Origin: an uncultured bacterium
Lineage (GTDB): Bacteria > Hydrothermota > Tepidihabitantia > CAYHGV01
Assembly (NCBI GenBank): GCA_964356135.1
Contig: CAYHGV010000001.1
Coordinates: forward strand, 8,179 to 72,178
Length of the DNA: 64,000 nucleotides
Direction: 5' to 3'
Part shown: one piece after another, positions 6,398 through 60,132 of the stretch
How the letters are laid out: every line of letters starts with the position of its first letter
How positions within the stretch are numbered: position 1 is the first letter of the stretch
Notes under the pieces: generated by a model
Database searches by the model: none
What the model was told of the DNA's origin: nothing
The model's input: only the letters and a program-made list of their open reading frames with translations
Made by a program: the position numbers and the translations under genes

Positions 6398-7822
6398 ATG
6401 GATAGACTGCTGGTGCTGCTGATCCTGGTGCCGATTGGCGCCGGGGTGCTGACTCCGCTTTTCGGTAGAATCCATCGGGTCGGCCGGGAAGTATGGGCGC
6501 TCTTGGTGAGCGGTAGCGCGTTCGGACTTTCGATACTGTTGCTGCGCACGGTTTTGATCGGTAAACCGTTATGGGCGTGGCGGCTTCCGGTGATGAGCGT
6601 TCTGCCGGCACCGCTCATGTATATCGACCGGGTGGGCGTATTTTTAGCCGTTCTTTTCAGTTTCGTTTTCTTTTTGACCACGCTCTACTCGACCGGTTAT
6701 CTTAAGGGTTATCCCCACCAGAGCGAGTATTATGGACTGCTCCTGGTTCTGCTGGGCGCGGTCACCGGTATTGTCTTTTCTGCCCATCTTTTGATGCTCT
6801 ATCTTTTTTGGGAACTGGCGACGCTGGGCACCTGGCGGCTGGTTGGATTCTATCGCAACCCCAATGAGATCCGGATTGCGGAAAAGATGTTTCTCTTGAC
6901 TTTTTTCGGGTCGGTTTTGATGCTGTGCGGGTTTGGGGCGTTGTATGTCAAATACCAGACGTTTAACATTTTTGACCTGTCCGGACTGCCGATCGATAGC
7001 TGGGTAGCGTTCTTAATATTAGCCGGAATTTTTGTCAAATCCGCCAGCCTGCCTCTCCATACCTGGCTGGCAGACGCCCATCCCGCCGCACCGTCGCCGA
7101 TGAGCGCGCTACTCTCGGGGATTATCGCCAAGATTGGGTTGGTCGCCTATATCCGAATCTTCATCCAGGGTGTTACGCCCCCTCCTTTTTGGGGCGGGAC
7201 GGTTGCGGCATTGGCAGTTGCCAGCGCAGTCGTGGCAGCGGGCTGTGCGTTGGTCGAAAAAGATTATAAACGGATTCTCGCCTTTTCGACCGTGAGCCAG
7301 TTGGGGTATATCTTTATCGGTTTCAGCCTGGCGACCTACTGGGGGGTGGTGGGCGGGCTGCTCTATCTGGCATCGCATTGCCTGGCAAAAGCCGGGTTGT
7401 TTCTGGCGTTCGGCATTGTCGAGCGGCAAACCCATGAGCGCAATGTCGATCAGCTGGGAGGACTTGTCCATACCTTGCCGGTCACCGGGATTTCGACGTT
7501 TATCCTCGCGTTATCGATAATCGGTATTCCACCGTTGTTTGGATTTTTCAGTAAAGTTGTGGTCGTGATAGCGGCGGCACAAAAGAGCATCATCGTTACC
7601 GCCGGTTTGGTGCTGGTAGCGATTTTCACCCTGCTCTACTTTATTAGAATTTTCAGCAAGGTTTTTTTAGGCCACCCCAAAGGGCGGACGACGGTGCGGG
7701 AGCCGGTGCTCCTGACCAGTGTGGTGGTGGTGCTGGCGGCGGTTTCGCTCGTGTTCGGGCTGGGGATCGGCTATCTGGTCGGTTTCTTTAACCAGGGTCA
7801 GGCGATATGCTCAATGTTCTAA
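6398..7822 (+). CDS. Antiporter-like membrane subunit (NuoN/MrpD/HyfB family). The ORF track begins at 6317; the start at MDRLLVLL (6398) is the more likely one.
   Basis: HTWLADAHPAAPSPMSALLSG motif typical of NuoL/M/N and MrpA/D; polytopic membrane protein. Confidence 0.75.
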   Translation: MDRLLVLLILVPIGAGVLTPLFGRIHRVGREVWALLVSGSAFGLSILLLRTVLIGKPLWAWRLPVMSVLPAPLMYIDRVGVFLAVLFSFVFFLTTLYSTGYLKGYPHQSEYYGLLLVLLGAVTGIVFSAHLLMLYLFWELATLGTWRLVGFYRNPNEIRIAEKMFLLTFFGSVLMLCGFGALYVKYQTFNIFDLSGLPIDSWVAFLILAGIFVKSASLPLHTWLADAHPAAPSPMSALLSGIIAKIGLVAYIRIFIQGVTPPPFWGGTVAALAVASAVVAAGCALVEKDYKRILAFSTVSQLGYIFIGFSLATYWGVVGGLLYLASHCLAKAGLFLAFGIVERQTHERNVDQLGGLVHTLPVTGISTFILALSIIGIPPLFGFFSKVVVVIAAAQKSIIVTAGLVLVAIFTLLYFIRIFSKVFLGHPKGRTTVREPVLLTSVVVVLAAVSLVFGLGIGYLVGFFNQGQAICSMF

Positions 7823-9708
7823 CCTTACCGATTCTGATTCCGACCGCGGCCGCGCTGTTGGGTTTTCTGATCAAGCGGCTGCGGAACGAGTTCGGGTTTG
7901 TCGGCGCTTTATTTACCCTCTACTATGCGGTCCGGCTCTTTTTGGTTTCCCGCTCGGCTACCCTCAGCTACGAGATTGTCCGCATCAAATCCCTCTCCTT
8001 CAGTCTGTTTGTCGATGGGTTCTCGGGTTTGATCATTCTCGCCTGTTCGTTCTTTGGTCTGTTGGTTCTCCTCTATTCATTCCGGTCGATGCGCATCTAT
8101 GCCCGGCTCAAAGGCTATTACGCCTATCTGCTGCTCACCCTTGCCTGCGCCAACGGTGTTAGCCTGGCGCACGATCTTCTGCTGTTACTCTTTTTCTGGG
8201 GGTTCCTCCTGGCACTGCTCTACGGGCTGCTCTCGATCGGCAAGGGTGAAACCGGTGATGCCGCGAATAAGGCGTTTACGGTCATCGGCATTTCCGATTT
8301 TCTTCTGCTCTTTGGCATTGCTCTGCTCGTGGCAAAGACCGGCAAAGCCGATATTGTCCTCGAATCGAAACTGGTGTTCACCGATCCCGTGCTTGTTGCC
8401 AGTTACATTCTGTTAGCCCTCGGGTGTTTCGGTAAAGCCGGGGCATATCCTTTCCATACCTGGATTCCGGAAGCGGCAAAAGTTGCGCCGGCAACAACGA
8501 TGGCGTTCATCCCGGCGAGCCTCGATAAACTGTTGGGGATCTATCTCCTGGCTCGGGTGAGCTACTCGATTTTCGATCTTACCACATCGCTTGCCCTGCG
8601 AATCTTTTTATTGAGCGTCGGTGCGGTCACCATTCTGGCTCCGGTGCTGATGGCGCTGGTGCAGAAGGAAGCGATGCGGCTCTTATCGTTCCATGCAGTT
8701 TCGCAGGTGGGCTACATGATTTTAGGAATCGGCACCGGCACGCCGATCGGTATTGCCGGTGCGATTTTTCATATGCTCAACAATTCGATTTACAAGTGCA
8801 GTTTGTTTTTGACTGTCGGTTCGGTTGAAGACCGGGCCAAGACCACCGACCTGGATAAGCTCGGTGGTCTTGGCCGGCAGATGCCGATTACGCTCTTTTC
8901 TTTTATTATTGCGGCGTTCGCCATCTCCGGGGTTCCTCCCCTCAACGGGTTCTTTTCTAAGTGGATGGTCTATCAGGGGATTTTAGAAACGGCGAAAGAT
9001 GGTAATAAAATTTATCCGATATTTTTAATTGTTGCTCTGTTCGGCAGTGTCCTGACTCTGGCTTCATTTCTCAAGCTGCTTCATTCGCTTTTCTTAGGCG
9101 AGCGGCCGTCCGGGCTGGCACGGGTCCGGGAATCGGGTTTTGTGATGTGGATTGTTACGGTCCTATTGGCGGCGATATGTATCCTCTTTGGCGTTTGGGT
9201 GCGGGTGCCGCTTAACCTGTTCATTTACCCCGCCATCGGATTCATAAAACCCGCGTTTATCGGCTTCTGGTCGCCTTCATTAGCCACCGGCATTATCATT
9301 ATCGGAATTGTGCTCGGGCTCGTCATCTACCTTCTCGGGACGGCATGGAAACCGATGCGCCGTCACGTATTTACCGGTGGCGAGCTGCTCGCACCGGACG
9401 AGGGTCACATTACCGGTCCCCATTTTTATAGTCCGGTAAAGGAACTCTTCGCAAAAAGCTATGAGTTTGGGGAGGGTGGAGCCTTTGACTTTTACAACTA
9501 TTCTACCGGTATCATTCGGGCGGTCAGTATGGTTTTTTCGCGGTTGATTGACCGCGGGTTTGACCGATTCTACGAATTCCTCGCCCGGTTAGGAAATCTC
9601 TTCGGAAGCGCGCTTTCGTTCGTTCATTCCGGAGAATTGCCGACCTATTTAGGCTGGATCTTTTTAGGAATGGCGGTAATTTTGATCGTGCTCATGTTCG
9701 GCGGTTAG
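7807..9708 (+). CDS. MrpA/NuoL-like antiporter subunit with a C-terminal extension.
   Basis: 633 aa, highly hydrophobic, with an HTWIPEAAKVAP...LGGL core. It overlaps the upstream gene by 16 nt. Confidence 0.75.
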   Translation: MLNVLTLPILIPTAAALLGFLIKRLRNEFGFVGALFTLYYAVRLFLVSRSATLSYEIVRIKSLSFSLFVDGFSGLIILACSFFGLLVLLYSFRSMRIYARLKGYYAYLLLTLACANGVSLAHDLLLLLFFWGFLLALLYGLLSIGKGETGDAANKAFTVIGISDFLLLFGIALLVAKTGKADIVLESKLVFTDPVLVASYILLALGCFGKAGAYPFHTWIPEAAKVAPATTMAFIPASLDKLLGIYLLARVSYSIFDLTTSLALRIFLLSVGAVTILAPVLMALVQKEAMRLLSFHAVSQVGYMILGIGTGTPIGIAGAIFHMLNNSIYKCSLFLTVGSVEDRAKTTDLDKLGGLGRQMPITLFSFIIAAFAISGVPPLNGFFSKWMVYQGILETAKDGNKIYPIFLIVALFGSVLTLASFLKLLHSLFLGERPSGLARVRESGFVMWIVTVLLAAICILFGVWVRVPLNLFIYPAIGFIKPAFIGFWSPSLATGIIIIGIVLGLVIYLLGTAWKPMRRHVFTGGELLAPDEGHITGPHFYSPVKELFAKSYEFGEGGAFDFYNYSTGIIRAVSMVFSRLIDRGFDRFYEFLARLGNLFGSALSFVHSGELPTYLGWIFLGMAVILIVLMFGG

Positions 9709-14773: not shown

Positions 14774-14861
14774 CGTTTTTTTCCCGAGAGATAAAATAAT
14801 ACCAGCGAACTAACATAGAACTTGAATTCTGACATAACCATCCGCCACGAGGTATGGCGGA

Positions 14862-15045
14862 CACACGAAGAAACACGAACGGGCACGAAAGGAATATTGG
14901 TAGTGAGCGAAATTCAATTTTCACCAATGAGGTGGAAAACAAAGAATGGTTGGTGGCGCTTCGCTCCACCTACTCTTCGAGTTTCGTGTCAATTCGCAAT
15001 CGTTCGTGTAAATTCGTGGTTTCTTATTTTAGGACTTGGGATAAA
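14862..15045. repeat. CACGAA-box element: a left arm with several ACACGAA/GCACGAA repeats and a right arm with matching TTCGTG repeats. Related copies lie at 23800-23910, 24620-24680, 44040-44200, 16640-16700 (partial) and 14074-14140 (a CACAAA variant).
   Basis: Read directly. The copies at 23800 and 44040 share a core of about 45 nt: GAAATTCG.AGAATAGAG.GA.TG.AAGGA.CTCAAA. Their termini are inverted (TTATCACG...CGTGATAA). Confidence 0.55.
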
Positions 15046-15065
15046 ACTTTAACTACAGGAGGCAG

Positions 15066-16551
15066 TTACATGAAACGAGTTTTTTTCGGATTGGCGATAG
15101 TAGTGGTTTCGCTTTTCGCCCAGACCGCGATCGAAGGTGCCTGGGAAGGAACAATTGTCGTTCTCGAGCAAGAGCTTGCGACCACGGTCAGTTTTTCAAA
15201 ATCGGGAGATAGCCTAACCGCAACCATCGATATTCCGCAGCAGAACGCAAGCAATCTCAAACTTGAGAAGGTGAGTTTTGATGGAACCAGGGTCCATTTC
15301 GAGCTTGCTGCTCAAACCAGGGTTATTTTTGACGGTAAGCTCGATACGGGAAAGATAACCGGTGATTTTACCCAGGCAGGGTTCAAGGGAACATTCGAGC
15401 TTGCGCCAGCCAAAAGAGTGGCAACCGGACCACCGCCGTATCGGGAAGAAGAAGTTTCGATAAAAGTAAACGCAGAAGTTACTCTTGCCGGGACGCTATC
15501 GCTGCCGCCCGATTCGGCGAAGCACCGGGCGGTGATACTTATCACCGGCAGCGGCCAGCAGGATCGCGATGAAAACGTCTTCGGGTTCAAAGTGTTCAAG
15601 GTTCTGGCAGACAGTCTTACCCGCGCCGGCATCGTAGTTCTGCGTTGCGACGACCGCGGCTTCGGCAAGTCGAAGGGCGGCGAAGGAGGGTGGAACAAGA
15701 ATACCTCCCGGGATTTTGCTCAGGATGTGCTTGCCCAGGTCGATTACTTGAAGACCCGTCCGGAGGTTGATACCGTTCAGCTCGGACTGCTCGGTCACAG
15801 CGAAGGTGCGCTCATTGCCGGTATGGTTGCGGTTGCTTCTCCGAGCGTTGCTTTTGTTGTTTTAATGGCGGGGTCGGCGGTTCGCGGTGACCAACTGCTG
15901 CTTGCCCAGCTTGAAGCGGTGATGCGGGCGGATAGTGTTTCCGAGAAAAAAATCGCTCGCCAGCGTGATATCCAGCGACGGATATTTGAGTTTGCTCGCA
16001 CCGGCAAAGGCGAAGAGGCGCTGCGCAAGGATATCGGCACATTGATGCTCGCCGATATCAGCGAGCTGCCCGCGGAGCAGCGCAAGGTAATAAGTAATAC
16101 GGAAGAGATTGTGAAAAAACAGGTCGATGGCCAGATTGCGGCCGTCACCAGCCCCGGTTTTCGGTTCTTTCTCGATTACGACCCCCGGTCCGACCTCGGC
16201 CGGATGCAGACTCCGATGCTGGCACTGTTCGGGAAGTTCGATGTTCAGGTTCCGGCCGAGATGAACGCCCGGGCGATGGAGGAGACGTTCAAAAAGGCGG
16301 GGAAGATCAACTACACCATCAAGACCTGCTGCCAGGCGAATCATCTGTTCCAGTCGGCGAAGACCGGCGGTATCTCGGAATACGGCAAGCTGCCGAAAGA
16401 GTTCACTCCCTGTTTCCTGCCGACCATCATCAACTGGATTCTGGGAAAGCCGATTCCGGAGAAGTGCGAGGGGGAGCAAGGTAATCCCCACGAGGGCTGT
16501 CCGAAGGCAGAGACCGGTAACTGCGCCGGCTGCCCGTATCACCAGAAATAG
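15066..16551 (+). CDS. Secreted alpha/beta-hydrolase (GHSEG nucleophile elbow) with a Cys-rich C-terminal tail.
   Basis: There is a signal peptide (MKRVFFGLAIVVVSLFAQTAIEG), then GLLGHSEGALIAG (GxSxG) with later Asp and His. The ORF track begins at 14854, but that upstream stretch is a repeat element and not coding. Confidence 0.7.
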
Positions 16552-16595
16552 ATTCGGGTTGTTATATTGAAATTTGTAAATGCGAATTAAAGAAA

Positions 16596-16625
16596 CCAAC
16601 AGGTTTTATTTTACACCTGTTTGGT
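16596..16625 (+). terminator. Hairpin (ACCAACAGGT...ACCTGTTTGGT) followed by a weak T-tract, lying 45 nt after the hydrolase stop.
   Basis: Inverted repeat read directly. Its core AACAGGT/ACCTGTT is the same palindrome found at 16797 and 18767. Confidence 0.4.
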
Positions 16626-16796
16626 GAATTTCGGAGTTGCTTAATTCTAAAATTCCCTTCGTGCCTATTCGGGTCTCTTCGTGTCAATTCGTGGTTAAGA
16701 CTGGATTCGGGTTGAACTAAGGATACTGAGTAGGTTCTCCAAGCGTTTTTTTGTCATTGCGCGCAATCTCAAGTGTAAATATCTCAAGACGATTGT

Positions 16797-16818
16797 AGCA
16801 ACAGGTCTTTAGACCTGT
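16797..16818. promoter_or_regulatory. Near-perfect 20-bp palindrome AACAGGTCTTTAGACCTGTT, about 75 bp upstream of the -35 box of the 16952 operon. A degenerate second copy lies at 18767-18788, upstream of the HNH gene.
   Basis: Read directly. Both copies sit within a conserved ~40-nt context (TGTAG.AACAGGTCTTT(T)AGAC.TGT...). Confidence 0.5.
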
Positions 16819-16951
16819 TGATGAGTTTGTAGGGTTAGAACGCGTCGCCAACTTTGTTTAATTTCACTAGGCTGTGCGTCGTCTTGACAAAAAGAGAAAA
16901 ATGGGTTATTAGTTAGTATGGGGTTAAAAGAAGGCCTGCCGAGAGGCGAAT

Positions 16952-17389
16952 ATGAATAGACCAAATCTAAAAAACAGAGCTCACGACCGGCAGGACAGGG
17001 TCGCGGTCTGGAGGATTACGGTCGATGAGAAACTGTCCGAGGATTATATCCGGCTGTTAGTCAGTCCATTAGACTCCGGCGTAAAAGACTTTTCCGACGA
17101 GAAGGATAATTGGGGTAGAGAGACGATAATGTTTGTCCAGTCCGAAAATTACGCCCAGATAATGAAAATACCGGCAAAATTTTCTAAAAAGATTCTGTGG
17201 TCGGACTTATGGGAAGGGCAGGTCTTTCTTGCTGGCAGATTCCGAATCGTGGGTAATAAAAAAACACCAGTGAAGTTTAGGGTTGACTCAAAACAGCAAA
17301 ATTTTCTTTCAATTTATGAATTGGCGAAGAAACAGATGAAACGCATCTATTTCCGCACGCTCGAGGGGAAGAGTGATGTCCCGAGTTAG
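16952..17389 (+). CDS. Hypothetical 145-aa protein encoded immediately upstream of, and overlapping, the MBL-fold gene.
   Basis: ORF with a sigma70-like promoter upstream (TTGACA at 16884). It overlaps the next gene by 17 nt, which suggests translational coupling. No recognisable motif. Confidence 0.5.
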   Translation: MNRPNLKNRAHDRQDRVAVWRITVDEKLSEDYIRLLVSPLDSGVKDFSDEKDNWGRETIMFVQSENYAQIMKIPAKFSKKILWSDLWEGQVFLAGRFRIVGNKKTPVKFRVDSKQQNFLSIYELAKKQMKRIYFRTLEGKSDVPS

Positions 17390-18461
17390 AATTGAGCCCC
17401 AAGACTTGGTCATTCATATCCTCAATGTCGGTTTCGGTGATACGATCCTGATCGGATTTCCAGCTCAGAACCTGAGCGCGCGGGCATACGGCTTGGTCGA
17501 TTGTAACGATGCCCGGAAGACGCTCGGCTATTTAAATAATTTGATACCGAAGCCAACCGAGAGGAAGCATCTGGCGTTTGTCTGTGCCACCCACCCGCAT
17601 ATGGACCATATCAGCGGTATCCAGGAAGTGCTTAAAGACCCTACGTATAAACCGTCTGAGTTCTGGGACAGCGGTTTCCGGCATAATTCACTCACTTATC
17701 GGGATAGCTTACTTGCAGTTTCAAGTGAAGGGATTAAGATGATTCAGGTTTCTTCAGGAATGGAATGGTATTTTGGCAGTGTTCGGATAACGGTATTGTC
17801 GCCGTCGGTGGCGCTTCGTAACCGATATGCGACCTATGGTGTTGATATGAATAACGCTTCGGTCGTTCTCCGGCTTGAGCATCACAGCGATGATATTTTG
17901 CTCACGACCTCGAGAGAATATAGCGGTAAGGCAAGCGAGGCGGTGGAACGGAATGCCGGTCAGTCGGTCGTTATACTCGCGGGTGACGCAGAATTCGACA
18001 GTTGGGCACAGATAGCTCAGGATTTTCCCAGGCTCGAACGGACGAGCGGTCATGACCCGCTCGTGAAGAAGATGATTAACTACCTCGCATGTTCGGCGGT
18101 GAAGGTTGCACATCACGGCAGCATGCACAGCGCACCCCTCGATATATATGAAAAGATGAAGCCCCAAACCGCAATTATATCGACCAAACAGGAAGTTAGT
18201 ACGAAACGAGGAACGGAGCAGGACTTACGTCGAGGATTATTTCCTCATTCCGCAACTACCATTGCCTTAGAAGAGTGCGATGCTCGGGTATTGACGACCG
18301 ACGGTAGTCATGAAGGGGAAGAAATCGGCGGCAAAATGAGGGCGCAGGAATTGAGCCATGAGGGGAGTGTCATACTGGTGGTGCCGCCGGCAGGCAAACT
18401 GCGCTGGTGCAAGCTCAATGATAAAGCCGATGAGATTCCTGAGCCGCCGACCGAGGTCTAA
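17373..18461 (+). CDS. Metallo-beta-lactamase-fold hydrolase of the ComEC/Rec2 type.
   Basis: ILNVGFGDTILI...VDCNDA...ATHPHMDHISG (HxHxDH)...VKVAHHGS are characteristic of the ComEC-type MBL domain. There is no membrane domain. Confidence 0.75.
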   Translation: MMSRVRIEPQDLVIHILNVGFGDTILIGFPAQNLSARAYGLVDCNDARKTLGYLNNLIPKPTERKHLAFVCATHPHMDHISGIQEVLKDPTYKPSEFWDSGFRHNSLTYRDSLLAVSSEGIKMIQVSSGMEWYFGSVRITVLSPSVALRNRYATYGVDMNNASVVLRLEHHSDDILLTTSREYSGKASEAVERNAGQSVVILAGDAEFDSWAQIAQDFPRLERTSGHDPLVKKMINYLACSAVKVAHHGSMHSAPLDIYEKMKPQTAIISTKQEVSTKRGTEQDLRRGLFPHSATTIALEECDARVLTTDGSHEGEEIGGKMRAQELSHEGSVILVVPPAGKLRWCKLNDKADEIPEPPTEV

Positions 18462-18836
18462 ATATGGACTGCGACTCATTTATTTAGAGATTTGATTCCA
18501 CTTTTGCGAAAAAGTGAAACAGGGAAGCTGAAAGTACAGAGGGCGGTGATGTAGGATGGTTCAGCATCAGCGATTATTGTATCCTCCGCTACCGGAGCGA
18601 AATTCACCTAACCCAGGTATGGGGGTATTAGGTTTCCGAGTTTGATAATTTTGAGTAAGGTAGCGGTGCGCTCGGACTGCTACAGTCCGCTATCGCACAC
18701 AGTAAAAGCAAATCTTGGTTTTTTCTCTTTCGTTAGGCGGTGGGAACTCTTCCAGAAAGCTGTAGAAACAGGTCTTTTAGACTTGTAGATTGTTTTGGGT
18801 ATCGTTTGGCTTGACAAATCTCCGATTCAAGGGTAA

Positions 18837-19616
18837 ATGTTACCTATGGAGGCTGAAGTAAAAGCTCCAAAAGAAGAAAAAGAAAACTGGTCAGAGCAAG
18901 AACTCGTTGTCGCCTTTAATTTGTACTGCAAGCTTCCTTTTGGTCAGTATCATAAACACAATAAAAAGGTAATTGAAATTGCTAAAATTCTTGGAAGAAC
19001 ACCGAGTGCGGTTGCGCTAAAATTATGTAATTTTGCAAGACTCGACCCGGTTCATCAAAAGCGTGGTATCAGGGGAATGAAACACGGGAGCAAACTTGAT
19101 GAGAAAATCTGGAATGAATTCAATCAAAACTGGGGTGGACTTTCATATCAGAGTGAAATTGCACTTGCCCAATTAAAAGGTCTTAAACATTACGGTTTGA
19201 TAAAAGACACGGAGAAGTTTCCCCCAGGTAAAGAAAAAGAAGCACTTGTTAAGGCGAGGATAAATCAGAATTTTTTTCGTGAGATGATATTGGCAGGTTA
19301 CAGAAATAGGTGCGCGATATGTTCTTTACCTGAAGTAAATTTATTAGTGGCTAGCCATATTATACCATGGTCTGAGAATGCGGATTTACGAATGAATCCA
19401 AGAAACGGAATTTGTATGTGTGTTTTACATGATAAAGCTTTCGATAAGGGTTTAATCACGATCAATGGTGATTATAAATTATTACTTTCGAAAATACTCA
19501 AAAGACTTTCTAAAGAACCAGCTATTCAAAGGGGATTCATTTTTTACGAGAGTTTTAAAATAAGACTACCTGATAAATTTATTGAATTCCATCGAAATGA
19601 GGTATTTATCGGATGA
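18837..19616 (+). CDS. HNH endonuclease-domain protein (restriction-enzyme-like HNH_2 type) with an N-terminal domain of unknown function.
   Basis: C-terminal RCAICSL...LVASHIIPWS...NGICMCVLHDKAFDKG (Cys pair plus the H-N-H core). Confidence 0.7.
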   Translation: MLPMEAEVKAPKEEKENWSEQELVVAFNLYCKLPFGQYHKHNKKVIEIAKILGRTPSAVALKLCNFARLDPVHQKRGIRGMKHGSKLDEKIWNEFNQNWGGLSYQSEIALAQLKGLKHYGLIKDTEKFPPGKEKEALVKARINQNFFREMILAGYRNRCAICSLPEVNLLVASHIIPWSENADLRMNPRNGICMCVLHDKAFDKGLITINGDYKLLLSKILKRLSKEPAIQRGFIFYESFKIRLPDKFIEFHRNEVFIG

Positions 19617-19763
19617 TAATCAGTACTTAACAATTCGATGCTGATTGAAGAGGAAGATATGAGGCAAGGTGGTCTTGACGAGATGTTGTTTTTAATTACA
19701 CTTATATCTAAGGAAACAAGTAATGAATTCCTATGCCTGTCGAAATGATTTCAAAGGATTATT

Positions 19764-20771
19764 ATGACAAAATTTGAGGTTAACCTGAACGAGAAATTTG
19801 CTTTGATTGCTGTCAGTACGTATGTTGACCGTGAATTACCATCTGAAAGACAGTATGCTCATGACCTTTGGGCAGTAAAGCTGCTACCTATCGGTGTCGG
19901 TAATCTCTGGGAGAAATGGCTGGGAAGTATCCTGATGGATCGATTAAAAAAAAGCAGTTTGTTTTTTATTGCCAAAGGCCCTTCGACCAATCCGGAACTT
20001 CTTGATGGAGACAACAAGAAATATATGAATCGAGTTTTTAATTTTTATAGGGGTTTGTTACTAAGTGGATTTCATATCGTAGATTCACCTATTCAATTAA
20101 CAGGGGTCAATAATGACCAAATAATAGATGTCCGAGAGATTGGCGAGCTTCCGAATCCTCGTTCTATCAGTGGTGAACATAACCAAAATGTCGATTCCAT
20201 ACAACTTATAGATGCTGCAAAGGTTGCCGATGCCATCAGGGATTTGCCAGGTCGAGGGAAGCTCTCGCGGTTTAAACGGATTTTGAATGCCTTTTTAGGC
20301 GGTATTGAAAGTTATTATGTGGAAGACAAAATTCATCAATTCTGTCGATGTATCGAAGGTTTCATCTACCCAGAGGTAGGGAAGACAAAGAGCCGATTCT
20401 GTTCACGAACTGAGTTGTTTCTCGGCCCACGCAATCATACGCTGATGGATCATTTGTATGATATTCGCAGTGCGGTAGAGCATATGCATAACCCACTGGA
20501 TGCAATTAGTGGCAGAAGTGGGAAGGAAAAGCGTCTTCTACTGTTACAGCGAAGCATCGAGGCAGAAGCGGTCGCTCGCTATTGCATTCGTCATCTGTTG
20601 CTGAATCGAAATTTATGGCAATATTTTGAAAATGAAAGCACACTAAATGACTTTTGGAAGAATAAGACAAATGCTGAACGGCAAAATATTTGGGGTGAGC
20701 CGTTTGATATCGGTGCTGTCTCAACCGGGTTCGATCCTACTATTTATAATGATGCGGACCTTGGTTTTTAA
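19764..20771 (+). CDS. Hypothetical protein with an Rx4H motif (RSAVEH); possibly a HEPN-like abortive-infection or RNase-type effector.
   Basis: The ORF contains YDIRSAVEHMHN (Rx4H), lies between the HNH and methyltransferase genes, and has lower GC than the flanking core genes. Confidence 0.45.
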   Translation: MTKFEVNLNEKFALIAVSTYVDRELPSERQYAHDLWAVKLLPIGVGNLWEKWLGSILMDRLKKSSLFFIAKGPSTNPELLDGDNKKYMNRVFNFYRGLLLSGFHIVDSPIQLTGVNNDQIIDVREIGELPNPRSISGEHNQNVDSIQLIDAAKVADAIRDLPGRGKLSRFKRILNAFLGGIESYYVEDKIHQFCRCIEGFIYPEVGKTKSRFCSRTELFLGPRNHTLMDHLYDIRSAVEHMHNPLDAISGRSGKEKRLLLLQRSIEAEAVARYCIRHLLLNRNLWQYFENESTLNDFWKNKTNAERQNIWGEPFDIGAVSTGFDPTIYNDADLGF

Positions 20772-20836
20772 AGGGAGCTTAGTAGGTGAGGGTGAAGAGT
20801 AAATGGATAATTTTGTGAATATTGAATTTAATAGGA

Positions 20837-22120
20837 ATGAATACATTACATAAAATAATCATCGGGGATTCGAGGGTAATGAAAGAGGTGGTGGATGAGT
20901 CGGTTCATCTGATCGTTACCTCTCCGCCTTACTGGCAGCTTAAGGATTATGGCAATGGGAAGCAGATAGGGTTTAATGATACCTACGAGGAATATATCAA
21001 TAATCTCAATCTTGTCTGGAATGAATGCCATCGGGTTCTGCATAAGGGCTGTCGTTTGTGTGTGAATATCGGCGACCAATTTGCCCGTTCGGTTTATTAT
21101 GGAAGATATAAGGTTATTCCAATAAGAACTGAAATAATCAAGTTTTGCGAAACGGCCGGTTTTGATTATATGGGTGCAATCATCTGGCAGAAGGTGACGA
21201 CCTGTCACACTACCGGCGGAGCAACGGTGATGGGTTCTTTTCCTTATCCAAGAAGTGGAATTCTTAAGCTTGATTATGAGTTTATTTTAATTTTAAAAAA
21301 ATATGGGGGTGGTCCGAAAGTTGGCAAAGAAGTCAAAGAACAATCGAGGTTAACACAAGAGGAATGGAATCAGTATTTTACTGGCCACTGGAATTTTGCC
21401 GGTGAAAAGCAGGATAAACACCTGGCGATGTTCCCGGAAGAACTGCCGAGGCGGCTTATCAAGATGTTTAGCTTTGTCGGAGATACCGTTTTAGACCCAT
21501 TTCTCGGCAGCGGCACGACCTCTTTAGCTGCTAAAAAGCTGAATCGTAATTCTATCGGCTACGAAATAAACGGCAGTTTTCTCAAAGTCATTAAAGAAAA
21601 GTTGGAAATAAGGCAGGGGTTAATCTTTCAAAACTCTCAATCTGAGATAATCGAGCAAGCGAAGTCTAAAACAGATTTCGCTGAAAGGATAAAAAGACTG
21701 CCCTATATCTTTAAGGACCCGATTAAATTCGATAAAATGGTTGACCCAAGAAAGTTAAAATTTGGCTCAAAGATTGATAATACCCATGCTGAACGGGAAA
21801 AGTATTATACGGTTAAAGAGATTGTCAGCCCGGAAATACTGGTTTTAAGCAACGGTTTAAAAATCAGGTTGATTGGAATAAGAGCGAAATCGGCAAAGAA
21901 TGAAGAAGCGATTCAATTTTTAAGAGAAAAAACCCGAGGGCAAAGGGTATTTATGAGGTTCGACGCTGTCAAATATGACGATAAAAATAACTTGTTGTGT
22001 TATTTGTACTTATGGAATAAAACCTTCATAAATGCTCACCTGATTAAAAATGGTCTGGTTGATGTCGATACGACTTTTGACTATAAATATAAGGCAAAAT
22101 TTTTATCGAAAGGAATGTAA
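20837..22120 (+). CDS. Beta-class DNA methyltransferase (N4-cytosine or N6-adenine) with a C-terminal degenerate SNase/OB-like domain.
   Basis: Motif IV (IVTSPPY) precedes motif I (VLDPFLGSGTT), which gives the beta-class order. The C-terminal ~150 aa fit the thermonuclease fold pattern (KIRLIGI...VFMRFD...NAHLIKNGLVDVD) but lack the DGD and D-PE catalytic residues. The ORF track begins at TTG 20822. Confidence 0.8.
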   Translation: MNTLHKIIIGDSRVMKEVVDESVHLIVTSPPYWQLKDYGNGKQIGFNDTYEEYINNLNLVWNECHRVLHKGCRLCVNIGDQFARSVYYGRYKVIPIRTEIIKFCETAGFDYMGAIIWQKVTTCHTTGGATVMGSFPYPRSGILKLDYEFILILKKYGGGPKVGKEVKEQSRLTQEEWNQYFTGHWNFAGEKQDKHLAMFPEELPRRLIKMFSFVGDTVLDPFLGSGTTSLAAKKLNRNSIGYEINGSFLKVIKEKLEIRQGLIFQNSQSEIIEQAKSKTDFAERIKRLPYIFKDPIKFDKMVDPRKLKFGSKIDNTHAEREKYYTVKEIVSPEILVLSNGLKIRLIGIRAKSAKNEEAIQFLREKTRGQRVFMRFDAVKYDDKNNLLCYLYLWNKTFINAHLIKNGLVDVDTTFDYKYKAKFLSKGM

Positions 22121-22122
22121 TA

Positions 22123-22827
22123 ATGCCAAAGGAATGGATAAAAGGCGTTGAGGGCTGCGCTCTAAAGTTCAAAAGAGAGGGTTTGTTAAACGCTGCGATG
22201 AACCGTTGGGGTCTTAATAAGGCGCACAGCGTTGATACGACTTCAGAACTGATACGACAATGTTCTCCTCGATCTTTTGCAGAATGGGAAAGGTTTTATT
22301 TTAGCAATGCGAAACAAAAGAAGCGGGACGGGGTTAGGATTACAAAAAAATATTTGAAAGATTTAGGAAGGAAGCTCTATATTAAATTAACGGAAGTTGT
22401 TCAGAGTGAAATAGAATCTATTACAGAGGAAGAATGCATAGATTATGTTTTTAATCTTGTATTGAATCGAACATTTGAGGGTTATCGGTCTGAAATCCGG
22501 ACCGTTTATGGACAATTGCAGGATGCCTTGGGAGTCAGTGTCGAACCCGCTCCCGATGAGTGGGATCGGGGTTATAATGTGGATTTTTTCATTAAGGTTA
22601 AGGATAAATACATTGGCCTTCAGATCAAGCCCGCAGGATTCGCTTACATTCCGCAAATCATTAATGAATTGGGGTTTCAGAAAAAGACCCATGAAAAATT
22701 TATTGCTAAATATGGTGGTAAAGTATTCTATATAATTTCAGTCAAGGAGGGTAAACAGAAAAAAATCCATAATACCGAAGTTATTGAAAAAATTAGGAAA
22801 GAGATTCAGAGGTTGGAAAAATTATAA
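22123..22827 (+). CDS. Hypothetical protein; candidate PD-(D/E)xK-type restriction endonuclease partner of the adjacent methyltransferase.
   Basis: It begins 3 nt after the methyltransferase stop, is 234 aa, and contains GYNVDFFIKVKDKYIGLQIKP, which may be a D...K/ExK-like core. There is no firm family match. Confidence 0.4.
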   Translation: MPKEWIKGVEGCALKFKREGLLNAAMNRWGLNKAHSVDTTSELIRQCSPRSFAEWERFYFSNAKQKKRDGVRITKKYLKDLGRKLYIKLTEVVQSEIESITEEECIDYVFNLVLNRTFEGYRSEIRTVYGQLQDALGVSVEPAPDEWDRGYNVDFFIKVKDKYIGLQIKPAGFAYIPQIINELGFQKKTHEKFIAKYGGKVFYIISVKEGKQKKIHNTEVIEKIRKEIQRLEKL

Positions 22828-57969: not shown

Positions 57970-58261
57970 ACTATAAATCGGATATCACCAAAGTCAAGTT
58001 TTCGATCGGTTTTTGACCGTTTACTGAATTTGGGTCAAAAAAAGGGGAGTTTATTCTACCGATCCGTCCTTATGGCACCGATCGGTTGCCCGTGTCCACC
58101 CGATACTCATTCAAGGCGGTTTAGACCCACCTTTTGGGCGAAAAGTTGTTATATTTCTTTACTTGTCCTGCCACAGGATTTCCCTTGGGAAAAAAGGTCG
58201 CTTTTCCCATTTTCCTGTCCCAAAAAATAGTCACTGCTTCCTATCAGCCCCAAAGTCAAAA

Positions 58262-59290
58262 CTATTTCTGTGATTTAATAAGTTTGAGCGAACGATTCAA
58301 CTGTAAAAGGAGAATAGCTTGAATCCCTTTGGGAGTTATGTAAAAATGATTAGCAACTTTCGCTAAAAACTCTAATTCACAGGCATAATTTGAGAAAATA
58401 TAAGTAGCAGTCTCTCGTGCTCTGTCTGTTTTCCAGGTTTCACCTTTACCGACGGATTTCACGAAATAATCTTGGACGGCATCCTTGGGTACTGGATAAA
58501 CGTTTTTCGCTAATACAAAGACAGACTCAACAATGGAAAAAATGGTATAAGTTATTGAAGAATGGAATGGATTTTCTTTTACAAAATCTGATAATAATTC
58601 AATCTGTTTATCATTTAATCTATCATCTACCATTCCACCACCTGCGTCTAAAAGGGCATTCCCAAGATCTGTTAAAAAATATTCCTGCTTAAATTTAGCG
58701 ACAAGGCCCAGTAATGTCGCTACTGATAAACGATTTCTGACAGTCTTTTCTGATCTGTTTTCAATGGTGCAAATATCTTTAATGTTTTTGCCTTGAGCCA
58801 ATATTTGTAATATAGGATTAAGTAGACCGAGTCTGACCATACCATAGTCGCCAGATTGTATTTTCAGAAAATACGAAAGCTCTTTGAAATTTTCATAGTA
58901 TTTCGAGAGAACGAATTCGGGTTTATAGGTTAGAAGTGTAATAGAGTTTTCTTTACATCTTTCAATATCTTCAGTTCTAGCCTCTGTTACCAGTATAAAT
59001 TTTCTGATTTCTACATTTATTAATTTATGTTGGGTTTGTAAATCTTGTAGATCCTTGAAATACGCGTTAATTTGACAAATTATATCACTGCAAAAAGCAC
59101 CGATTTTCAATTCAATGAGAAGTAATTCATCTTCATGCAGATAGATTAGGTCAAGTTTCCCAGTTTTTAAGATTTTTTGACGGGCTATAAAACTTAAGTT
59201 AGCAGGATTTGCCGAAAGAATTTCCGCTAAAATGGATTTATCGGCGCTCAAAATATCCTCAATCATTTTTTCTGAAATCAAATCATTCAT
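58262..59290 (-). CDS. Hypothetical protein with an N-terminal PD-(D/E)xK nuclease-like motif, encoded in an AT-rich island.
   Basis: GKLDLIYLHEDELLLIELKIG (D...ExK). GC content is about 33%, against about 55% for the flanks. Confidence 0.55.
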   Translation of the reverse strand: MNDLISEKMIEDILSADKSILAEILSANPANLSFIARQKILKTGKLDLIYLHEDELLLIELKIGAFCSDIICQINAYFKDLQDLQTQHKLINVEIRKFILVTEARTEDIERCKENSITLLTYKPEFVLSKYYENFKELSYFLKIQSGDYGMVRLGLLNPILQILAQGKNIKDICTIENRSEKTVRNRLSVATLLGLVAKFKQEYFLTDLGNALLDAGGGMVDDRLNDKQIELLSDFVKENPFHSSITYTIFSIVESVFVLAKNVYPVPKDAVQDYFVKSVGKGETWKTDRARETATYIFSNYACELEFLAKVANHFYITPKGIQAILLLQLNRSLKLIKSQK

Positions 59291-59511
59291 TCTTCGATAT
59301 ATGGGTAAAAATTTTGCTCGTCGGTAATTTTAAGCCCTTCGACTAACCATTCTCTTATTATATCTCTAATCTCTCCAATCATTTCTATGTCCCATTCGAT
59401 ATTTTTCTTGGTAGGATTTACCATTAGAATAAGTTGATAAATAGCATTATCAACAAAATCTTGTCTATCAATTTGTTCACGCGTCAATTTTTTCATGTCG
59501 TTTCTACTCAT
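59287..59511 (-). CDS. Hypothetical 74-aa protein. It overlaps the start of the PD-(D/E)xK gene (ATGA) within the same AT-rich island.
   Basis: ORF with a 4-nt overlap to the downstream gene and matching low GC. Confidence 0.4.
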   Translation of the reverse strand: MSRNDMKKLTREQIDRQDFVDNAIYQLILMVNPTKKNIEWDIEMIGEIRDIIREWLVEGLKITDEQNFYPYIEE

Positions 59512-59846
59512 AGGTAGAGAATTGCTTTGCTGTTAGGGTCCAATTTCGCCGAATTTCTTTAAGCCAAGTTGACCTCACATTCTCTGTTTCATCAATCTGG
59601 TTCATTATTCAGTCCCTTTTTTAACTCTCATAGCTGTAATATACAGAAAACATCTGAGTTGTCAACTAAAAAAATGGGGATTTCTGAAAAAGTCATCAGA
59701 AATCTTGATTACTCGGCACCAAAGGTGCCGCGCGATTATATGACGATGCCGGTGATACAATCCCTTGAATTTCCATCGCTGCAATCGTTTCCCTCATCGC
59801 CGGAATCAATGAGAGCGAGTTTTTCAGAGCTCTCGAAGGTTTCCCT

Positions 59847-59874
59847 TGACAAAATTCTTGAATTTGCTATACTT
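59847..59874 (+). promoter_or_regulatory. Sigma70-like promoter (TTGACA, 16 nt, TATACT) for the cold-shock protein gene.
   Basis: Read directly; an AAGGAGG ribosome-binding site follows at about 59914. Confidence 0.55.
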
Positions 59875-59931
59875 AGTTAAGTCTGAACCTTATGGTTAAA
59901 TCTTAGGCTTGCAAGGAGGATTGATAATCCT

Positions 59932-60132
59932 ATGTTTGGTAAAGTCAAATGGTTCGATGGAAAGAAGGGCTATGGTTTCGTCGAACTGGAAGACGGTAGT
60001 GGCGATGTATTCGTTCACTTTCAGGATATAGTGGGTGAAGGATATAAAACCCTTAATGAAGGCGAAAAAGTTAGTTTTGATATAACTGACAGCCCGAAAG
60101 GTAAGAAAGCCACAAACGTTGCACGGGCGTAA
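59932..60132 (+). CDS. cspA: Cold-shock protein (CspA family, S1-like cold-shock domain).
   Basis: GKVKWFDGKKGYGFVELEDGSGDVFVHF contains the RNP1 and RNP2 motifs. Confidence 0.9.
   Translation: MFGKVKWFDGKKGYGFVELEDGSGDVFVHFQDIVGEGYKTLNEGEKVSFDITDSPKGKKATNVARA

Follow-up and report, generated by a model that had tools for sequence, protein, structure and literature searches.

A low-GC block in an uncultured bacterium carries a Type II restriction-modification pair of the MjaI/MthZI kind, a probably solitary HNH nuclease and a HEPN-like gene

We analyzed a 64-kb stretch of contig CAYHGV010000001.1 from an uncultured bacterium (hereafter the window), focusing on four consecutive plus-strand open reading frames, ORF1 to ORF4, at positions 18837-22827. 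ORF3 and ORF4 are a conventional two-gene Type II restriction-modification (R-M) system of the MjaI/MthZI kind, composed of a methyltransferase (MTase) and a restriction endonuclease (REase). The region is probably a stretch of variable defence hotspot located between conserved housekeeping genes and holding three functionally independent modules, a degree of confidence that we extend to the explanation as a whole, namely, the hotspot, the ORF3 and ORF4 R-M pair, ORF1 as a solitary gene, and ORF2 as a single-gene system. A sequence-only reading of this DNA had described a compact restriction/defence island of four genes with lower GC content than their flanks. The four genes are indeed found at these coordinates, with an overall GC fraction of 0.386 (0.359, 0.416, 0.390, and 0.380 for ORF1 to ORF4, respectively) against 0.51 in both flanks and 0.494 in the whole window. 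The defence interpretation also stood: ORF4 falls into the MjaI family of REases, ORF2 appears HEPN-like by fold and motif, and database searches placed none of the four products in a housekeeping family.

18837..19616, plus strand: ORF1, 259 amino acids (aa), helix-turn-helix (HTH) and HNH_2 endonuclease; likely start ATG 18846 (256 aa)
19311-19466, plus strand: HNH domain of ORF1
19764..20771, plus strand: ORF2, 335 aa, two domains, uncharacterised family
20466..20483, plus strand: Rx4H motif of ORF2, codons R235-S-A-V-E-H240, conserved in homologs
20822..22120, plus strand: ORF3, beta-class SPPY amino-methyltransferase with a C-terminal staphylococcal nuclease (SNase)-like domain; 432 aa from TTG
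21803..22093, plus strand: SNase-like (OB-fold) domain of ORF3, residues 328-424; Pfam SNase, NCBIfam NucI
22123..22827, plus strand: ORF4, 234 aa, MjaI-family Type II REase; Pfam RE_MjaI

Translation of ORF1 from the ATG at 18846 gives 256 aa, which equals the length of the NCBI-called product. For ORF3, the true start is likely the ATG at 20837, yielding a 427-aa protein that agrees with the public product and with the way the PADLOC model aligns.

The 234-aa product of ORF4, previously put forward as a possible cognate restriction enzyme, matched the Pfam RE_MjaI family (PF09568) over model positions 3-162 of 164 (E = 1.6e-39), scoring 135.8 bits where 22.7 is the cut-off, which bears out that proposal. 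It also matched the PADLOC REase_II model (E = 2.8e-32) and, through its N-terminal 120 residues, the MjaI-family REase of pFZ1 (25% identity, E = 3e-7), while comparison with PDB sequences returned no meaningful match. ORF3 displays the motif order of beta-class enzymes, in which SPPY (residues 34-37) precedes FLGSG (residues 227-231), and was recognized by Pfam N6_N4_Mtase (E = 1.8e-43). Its core is 34% identical to M.MthZI of pFZ1 (E = 5e-39). The closest solved structure is TTHA0409 from Thermus thermophilus (PDB 2zie/2zif), a putative beta-class N4-cytosine MTase of 297 aa that lacks the C-terminal SNase-like extension of ORF3; the match to 2zie (E = 3.3e-55) covers ORF3 residues 9-261 and spans the catalytic core and the target recognition domain (TRD). 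The two genes are co-directional, MTase then REase, and lie only 2 nt apart, the TAA stop of ORF3 occupying positions 22118-22120 and the ATG of ORF4 starting at position 22123.

This arrangement recurs well beyond the window. We collected 82 loci (80 metagenomic and 2 viral) encoding MTases fused, like ORF3, to an SNase-like domain. In 51 of them, including the two viral contigs, the gene that follows the fusion MTase encodes a member of a single family of MjaI-like REases, usually at a distance of 9-21 nt. These REases are 19-70% identical to ORF4 (median 56%), compared with 63-83% for the fusion MTases of these loci and 71-83% for fusion MTases across very distant phyla. The REases share an invariant D154...(Q/S)-I-K169-P170 block, which would fit a variant of the PD-(D/E)xK motif. 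The downstream REases also appear to form two subfamilies of about 27 and 20 members that differ, for example, by a Q or an S at position 167.

The characterized relatives of the pair all point to the same target. MjaI is a CTAG-specific cutter (PMC2615612), and M.MjaI, M.MthZI, and M.BfaI are beta-subtype SPPY MTases of 303-364 aa that produce N4-methylcytosine (m4C) in CTAG (PMC5867850). Both proteins of the MthZI (pFZ1, Methanothermobacter) and MjaI (M. jannaschii) systems are homologous to ORF3 and ORF4, with the same SPPY...FxGxG order in the MTases, and the pFZ1 REase falls, like ORF4, in RE_MjaI (215.3 bits). The resemblance has its limits, as M.MthZI (355 aa) has no SNase-like domain, and the pFZ1 genes are convergent and overlapping, unlike the co-directional pair of the window. 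By analogy with these systems, ORF3 would place an N4-methyl group on cytosine in CTAG, and ORF4 would cut unmethylated CTAG in incoming DNA.

The composition of the window supports such a specificity without proving it. CTAG occurs only 4 times in 64 kb while 73 occurrences are expected, and its observed-to-expected ratio (O/E) of 0.05 is the lowest of the 16 four-base palindromes. The ratio was 0.21 across the loci of the MTase family and 0.58 in unrelated control loci.

The four CTAG sites of the window (positions 16867, 19351, 45441, and 58977) all lie in stretches with a GC fraction of 0.36-0.46, below the window mean. These stretches correspond to the island with its upstream block, to 44-46 kb, and to 58-60 kb, and the higher-GC core DNA contains none. 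Positions 58001-60000 form a second GC trough (0.36-0.37 versus about 0.50) with one CTAG site inside, which may represent another acquired island.

A distinctive feature of ORF3 is the domain that follows its MTase core. The sequence-only reading had fitted the C-terminal 150 aa to the SNase fold and had proposed that the catalytic acidic residues were missing. The resemblance was upheld by Pfam SNase (PF00565; 25.1 bits versus a gathering score of 21) and by the NCBIfam thermonuclease NucI model on residues 328-424 (E = 1.4e-4), but the SNase-like part is shorter than thought, comprising about 100 residues (328-424) behind a linker of about 60 residues. For comparison with the catalytic residues, the sequence of S. 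aureus nuclease A was verified against 1ey0 and aligned by hhalign, hmmsearch, and MAFFT; the full register was obtained from MAFFT and hmmsearch, and the hhalign alignment, which covered the C-terminal half with low probability, agrees with it. The beta-barrel and helix segments of staphylococcal nuclease are colinear with the ORF3 domain. Within the catalytic set, R35 alone is kept: D21 is replaced by Pro/Glu, R87 by Asn, and the D40-T41-P42-E43 segment falls in a deletion (D40-P47). The acidic residues D21, D40, and E43 are thus lost in the alignment, as the earlier reading had proposed, together with T41 and R87. A narrow profile built from the SNase-like domain reached no SNase chain among PDB sequences. 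Nuclease activity is not expected from a domain with this set of residues, and the system is not of Type IIG, since the sole nuclease-like domain of ORF3 lacks catalytic residues and a separate REase gene follows.

The domain would rather serve as an accessory module for non-specific DNA binding or dimerisation, as in CcrM. CcrM, a beta-class MTase, binds DNA non-specifically through its C-terminal domain (PMC6787082), so that, as in ORF3, the amino-MTase core is followed by an accessory domain, which in CcrM helps to hold DNA. The two proteins also differ, since CcrM is an orphan adenine MTase whose C-terminal domain has an unrelated fold, and DNA binding by the ORF3 domain is only presumed. 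Reuse of inactive SNase domains as binding modules is documented for Tudor-SN/eTudor proteins (PMC7641849). We had also considered that the domain might replace a missing TRD, an idea that was dropped given the structured TRD of TTHA0409 (PMC5173035); because the ORF3 core aligns with the whole of this TRD-bearing protein, the SNase-like domain is better viewed as accessory than as a TRD substitute. A lesser possibility is that the dead domain would give this family of CTAG MTases a DNA-handling property that has not been described. The domain is more than 80% identical across phyla.

The fusion itself had been considered new, a claim that did not survive database comparison. In a homology search with at least 8,000 scored candidates, the best 120 clusters were all at least 80% identical to ORF3 over the full length. 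Public data already give many of the fusion clusters the tag PF00565+PF01555, most close homologs have PF00565 among their precomputed domains, and a single REBASE-derived PADLOC model (MTase_II PDLC03259) covers ORF3 from end to end (E = 5e-197, residues 8-428, model positions 2-420 of 423). The sources of these clusters include Paceibacterota, Aminicenantes, Melioribacter, Brocadiaceae, Cloacimonadia, Bacteroidales, and other groups. The fusion MTase is thus no oddity but represents a widespread family that moves horizontally. No paper describing it was found in the literature searched, and its novelty is limited to having gone unremarked there.

Gene content in related loci separates the four genes into three modules that are independent of one another. 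Homologs of ORF1, of ORF2, and of the metallo-beta-lactamase (MBL)-fold protein encoded upstream of ORF1 are absent from all 82 MTase loci. Conversely, none of 55 loci of the ORF2 family has a homolog of ORF1, ORF3, ORF4, or the MBL protein, apart from a weak 45-residue MTase-like match in one of them (L027). A syntenic relative (L138/L139), whose housekeeping proteins are 73-91% identical to those of the window on both sides, gives a direct view of the process. L138 retains the HNH and MTase genes, which are 7 nt apart, and lacks ORF2 (window positions 19617-20836), the REase (22123-22827), and a 4-kb block upstream of ORF1 (14854-18836). A PDDEXK_3 gene and a DUF4258 pair are found as replacement content, and homology resumes exactly at the ATG of the MTase and at the ribosome-binding site of a downstream 291-aa gene. 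This pattern of presence and absence indicates that the site is a hotspot at which defence genes are gained and lost one at a time, and the comparison illustrates the mosaicism of such islands. It also argues against the grouping of an R-M system with a HEPN-like gene as a unit, which the sequence-only reading had singled out. The L138 MTase has an SNase-like domain as well (26.3 bits with Pfam SNase). At 454 aa, it is longer by about 22 residues inserted into the linker (L138 positions 9548-9627), indicating that the linker tolerates changes in length. Scans for tRNA genes and Rfam families that could mark island boundaries were empty, and a promoter and terminator scan gave results no different from those of shuffled sequence. 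Most of the locus amounts to routine annotation, and the R-M pair is a further case of a known type.

ORF1 was confirmed as an HNH_2-type nuclease (Pfam HNH_2, E = 3.7e-13), while its N-terminal domain, reported earlier as uncharacterised, turned out to be a homeodomain-like three-helix HTH. It also matched the PADLOC 'HNH' model over its full length (E = 3.6e-86) and, with E = 2e-36, PADLOC PDLC03546, a model whose description is that of a Type II restriction enzyme. The family comprises 3,881 clusters; its proteins are about 255 aa long and carry the source name 'putative restriction endonuclease', and none of the catalytic residues H171, N187, and H195 varies. No member was found in viral contigs. 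The closest relatives of the HNH nuclease are TagI, VcaM4I, and McrA, and its structural neighbours are modification dependent. Homologs with 53-76% identity are solitary genes located among housekeeping genes, with no MTase nearby, in L140, L141, L144-146, and L147, which represent four independent contexts. An MTase beside an ORF1 homolog was observed only in the lineage of the window itself. Since a methylation-sensitive REase could not survive in a cell without its MTase, ORF1 is probably a solitary, Type IV-like nuclease, which would act without a methyltransferase partner on modified or otherwise marked foreign DNA. TagI, VcaM4I, and EcoKMcrA, all modification-dependent (Type IV) HNH REases, share the intact H-N-H residues with ORF1, but they sense modification through SRA, EVE, or NEco domains, in place of which ORF1 has its HTH; ORF1 carries no fused modified-base sensor of the SRA, EVE/PUA, YTH, wH, or NEco kinds.

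ORF2 is the sole part of the locus that is potentially new. The Rx4H motif reported in this 335-aa protein is present as RSAVEH, with R235, E239, and H240 invariant in 49 close homologs. Across 51 divergent members of the family, R235 is invariant and E239 and H240 are at least 90% conserved; H191, R195, and R215 are also conserved. The AlphaFold model, predicted with confidence (pLDDT 94.7, pTM 0.92), comprises two domains: an alpha/beta domain at the N-terminus, which ends near residue 130, and a helical one at the C-terminus (residues 145-321). Searches of Pfam, NCBIfam, PADLOC, PHROGs, and PDB sequences with ORF2 and the 51 divergent relatives returned no match, in line with the earlier impression that the motif was its only recognisable feature. 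Likewise, a Foldseek search of PDB with the whole model gave no significant match, which is why the assignment of the C-terminal domain as HEPN-like, by predicted fold and motif, is of moderate strength and not firm. Proteins such as the HEPN-MNT toxins, AbiV, the HEPN domain of AbiA, and Csm6 offer a frame of comparison, although ORF2 is not a member of any HEPN family by sequence.

An exhaustive profile search recovered 1,548 representatives of the ORF2 family, counted at the 50%-identity level; their architecture is uniform and their length about 330 aa. The family is present in 48 of 185,579 reference species, and its hosts are mostly metagenome-assembled genomes of Alphaproteobacteria, with scattered occurrences in NC10, Acidobacteriota, Gemmatimonadota, and myxobacteria. 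No conserved partner gene was detected, the most frequent neighbour being found in 5 of 54 loci. Of the 85 Pfam families matched by 150 neighbours, the 25 that were listed include no nucleotidyltransferase family, and the loci examined thus differ from HEPN-MNT pairs in having neither an MNT antitoxin nor another conserved partner. The neighbours observed include Type I R-M systems with SIR2 and TIR-AAA, BrnT/BrnA, Abi_alpha at the end of a prophage, and a REase-ARP with an integrase, as well as HEPN_LA2681, PDC-M21, Dsr1, Type III MTases, integrases, a resolvase, and a transposase. This setting suggests that ORF2 is a stand-alone abortive-infection or toxin-like gene. Its C-terminal domain would act as a metal-independent RNase and its N-terminal domain would restrain the RNase or sense infection, making ORF2 an abortive-infection or toxin-type defence. 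The family may constitute a new anti-phage or abortive-infection system made of a single gene, whose N-terminal sensor would release a C-terminal HEPN RNase, a tentative proposal that we consider somewhat doubtful. ORF2 is nonetheless the only lead of the locus with real discovery value and a reasonable candidate for defence-system screens.

The best explanation must be weighed against other ways of reading the same genes. The sequence-only reading had favored a single atypical Type II or IIG-like system formed by all four genes, as their common strand, close spacing, and shared low GC would suggest. We regard this as highly improbable, and the comparison of gene neighbourhoods largely refutes it: ORF3 and ORF4 recur as a complete two-gene unit (the 51 loci above), HNH and ORF2 homologs are missing from all 82 MTase loci and the other genes from all 55 ORF2 loci, L138 does without ORF2 and the REase, and the MTase polypeptide contains no nuclease, given the missing SNase catalytic residues. 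It is also very unlikely that ORF1 is a methylation-sensitive REase protected by ORF3, with the MjaI-like enzyme as a second partner. The 7 nt between the HNH stop and the MTase start in L138, where no other REase is present, and the PADLOC matches of ORF1, including the Type II description of PDLC03546, speak for such a link, whereas the MTase-free homologs in four contexts, a lethal situation for a methylation-sensitive enzyme, the lack of an HNH homolog in all 82 fusion-MTase loci, and the modification-dependent structural neighbours of ORF1 speak against it. Another alternative, which we judge quite unlikely, accepts the R-M pair but holds that it is decaying, with an inactive REase and an MTase acting as an orphan. 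It draws on the replacement of a Gly by Asp at position 38 of ORF4, on the precise loss of the REase from L138 with retention of the MTase, and on the existence of orphan CTAG MTases such as HVO_0794 in Haloferax volcanii (PMC5867850). However, ORF4 is full length and keeps all other invariant residues, including D154 and K169-P170, Asp38 is shared with one other family member, and the extreme avoidance of CTAG fits restriction pressure, though possibly of the past. Finally, ORF2 may be neither an RNase nor a defence protein, but a helical protein with another function, e.g., a regulator or a scaffold, that merely resembles HEPN domains, a view to which we assign a low probability.

Several observations nevertheless weigh against the R-M pair, solitary nuclease, and defence-gene assignments. 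The CTAG and m4C specificity is extrapolated from characterized enzymes that are only 25-34% identical to ORF3 and ORF4, and the CTAG depletion falls short of proof because this tetranucleotide is generally rare, being under-represented in many bacteria regardless, as in the control loci. Codon 38 of ORF4 (positions 22234-22236) encodes Asp where 45 of 47 MjaI-like REases beside fusion MTases have Gly, so that 'VDT' stands in place of a 'VGP' block, a change that, with the loss of the REase in the relative, could mean that ORF4 is decaying. For ORF1, the close spacing of HNH and MTase genes in L138 could reflect a functional pairing in this lineage, and its homeodomain-like HTH is not a known reader of modified bases. 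ORF1 further carries an 18-nt in-frame deletion (within 19560-19616) relative to L138 and the whole family, with the loss of six residues (LPDK------FIEFHR), including a nearly invariant Phe and Pro, between the short repeats PDKFI and PDKKFI; this deletion may impair the enzyme. As for ORF2, its apparent association with defence genes comes from a listing of neighbours.

Outside the four genes, two neighbouring genes were found upstream.

16952..18461, plus strand: two overlapping genes, the first an ORF of 145 aa and the second encoding an MBL-fold protein of 362 aa, upstream neighbours that are not part of the four-gene finding

This gene pair sits in the 14854-18836 block that is absent from L138. 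The 145-aa ORF has no database match, and the 362-aa MBL protein showed weak matches to models of defence-associated MBL proteins, namely LmuA (E = 2e-13), RTasMBL (E = 2.4e-12), PDC-M48B, 6A-MBL, and Avs1a, all below the curated cut-offs. Its closest plasmid homolog is encoded by a Streptomyces plasmid (31% identity, E = 1e-38), where it adjoins IS701 and a patatin gene. The gene ahead of it there, of about 146 aa, shows no detectable similarity to the 145-aa ORF of the window.

A toxin-antitoxin-like pair consisting of DUF4258 and a gene of about 80 aa also lies upstream of HNH in two genomes that are unrelated to each other (L138 positions 6778-7815 and L140 positions 6603-7365). The two pairs are only about 37% identical over short stretches, and DNA identity between the HNH genes reaches 73%. 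A shared mobile unit composed of DUF4258 and HNH was considered and rejected, as DNA-level similarity is confined to the HNH gene, which alone appears to have been exchanged between L138 and L140.

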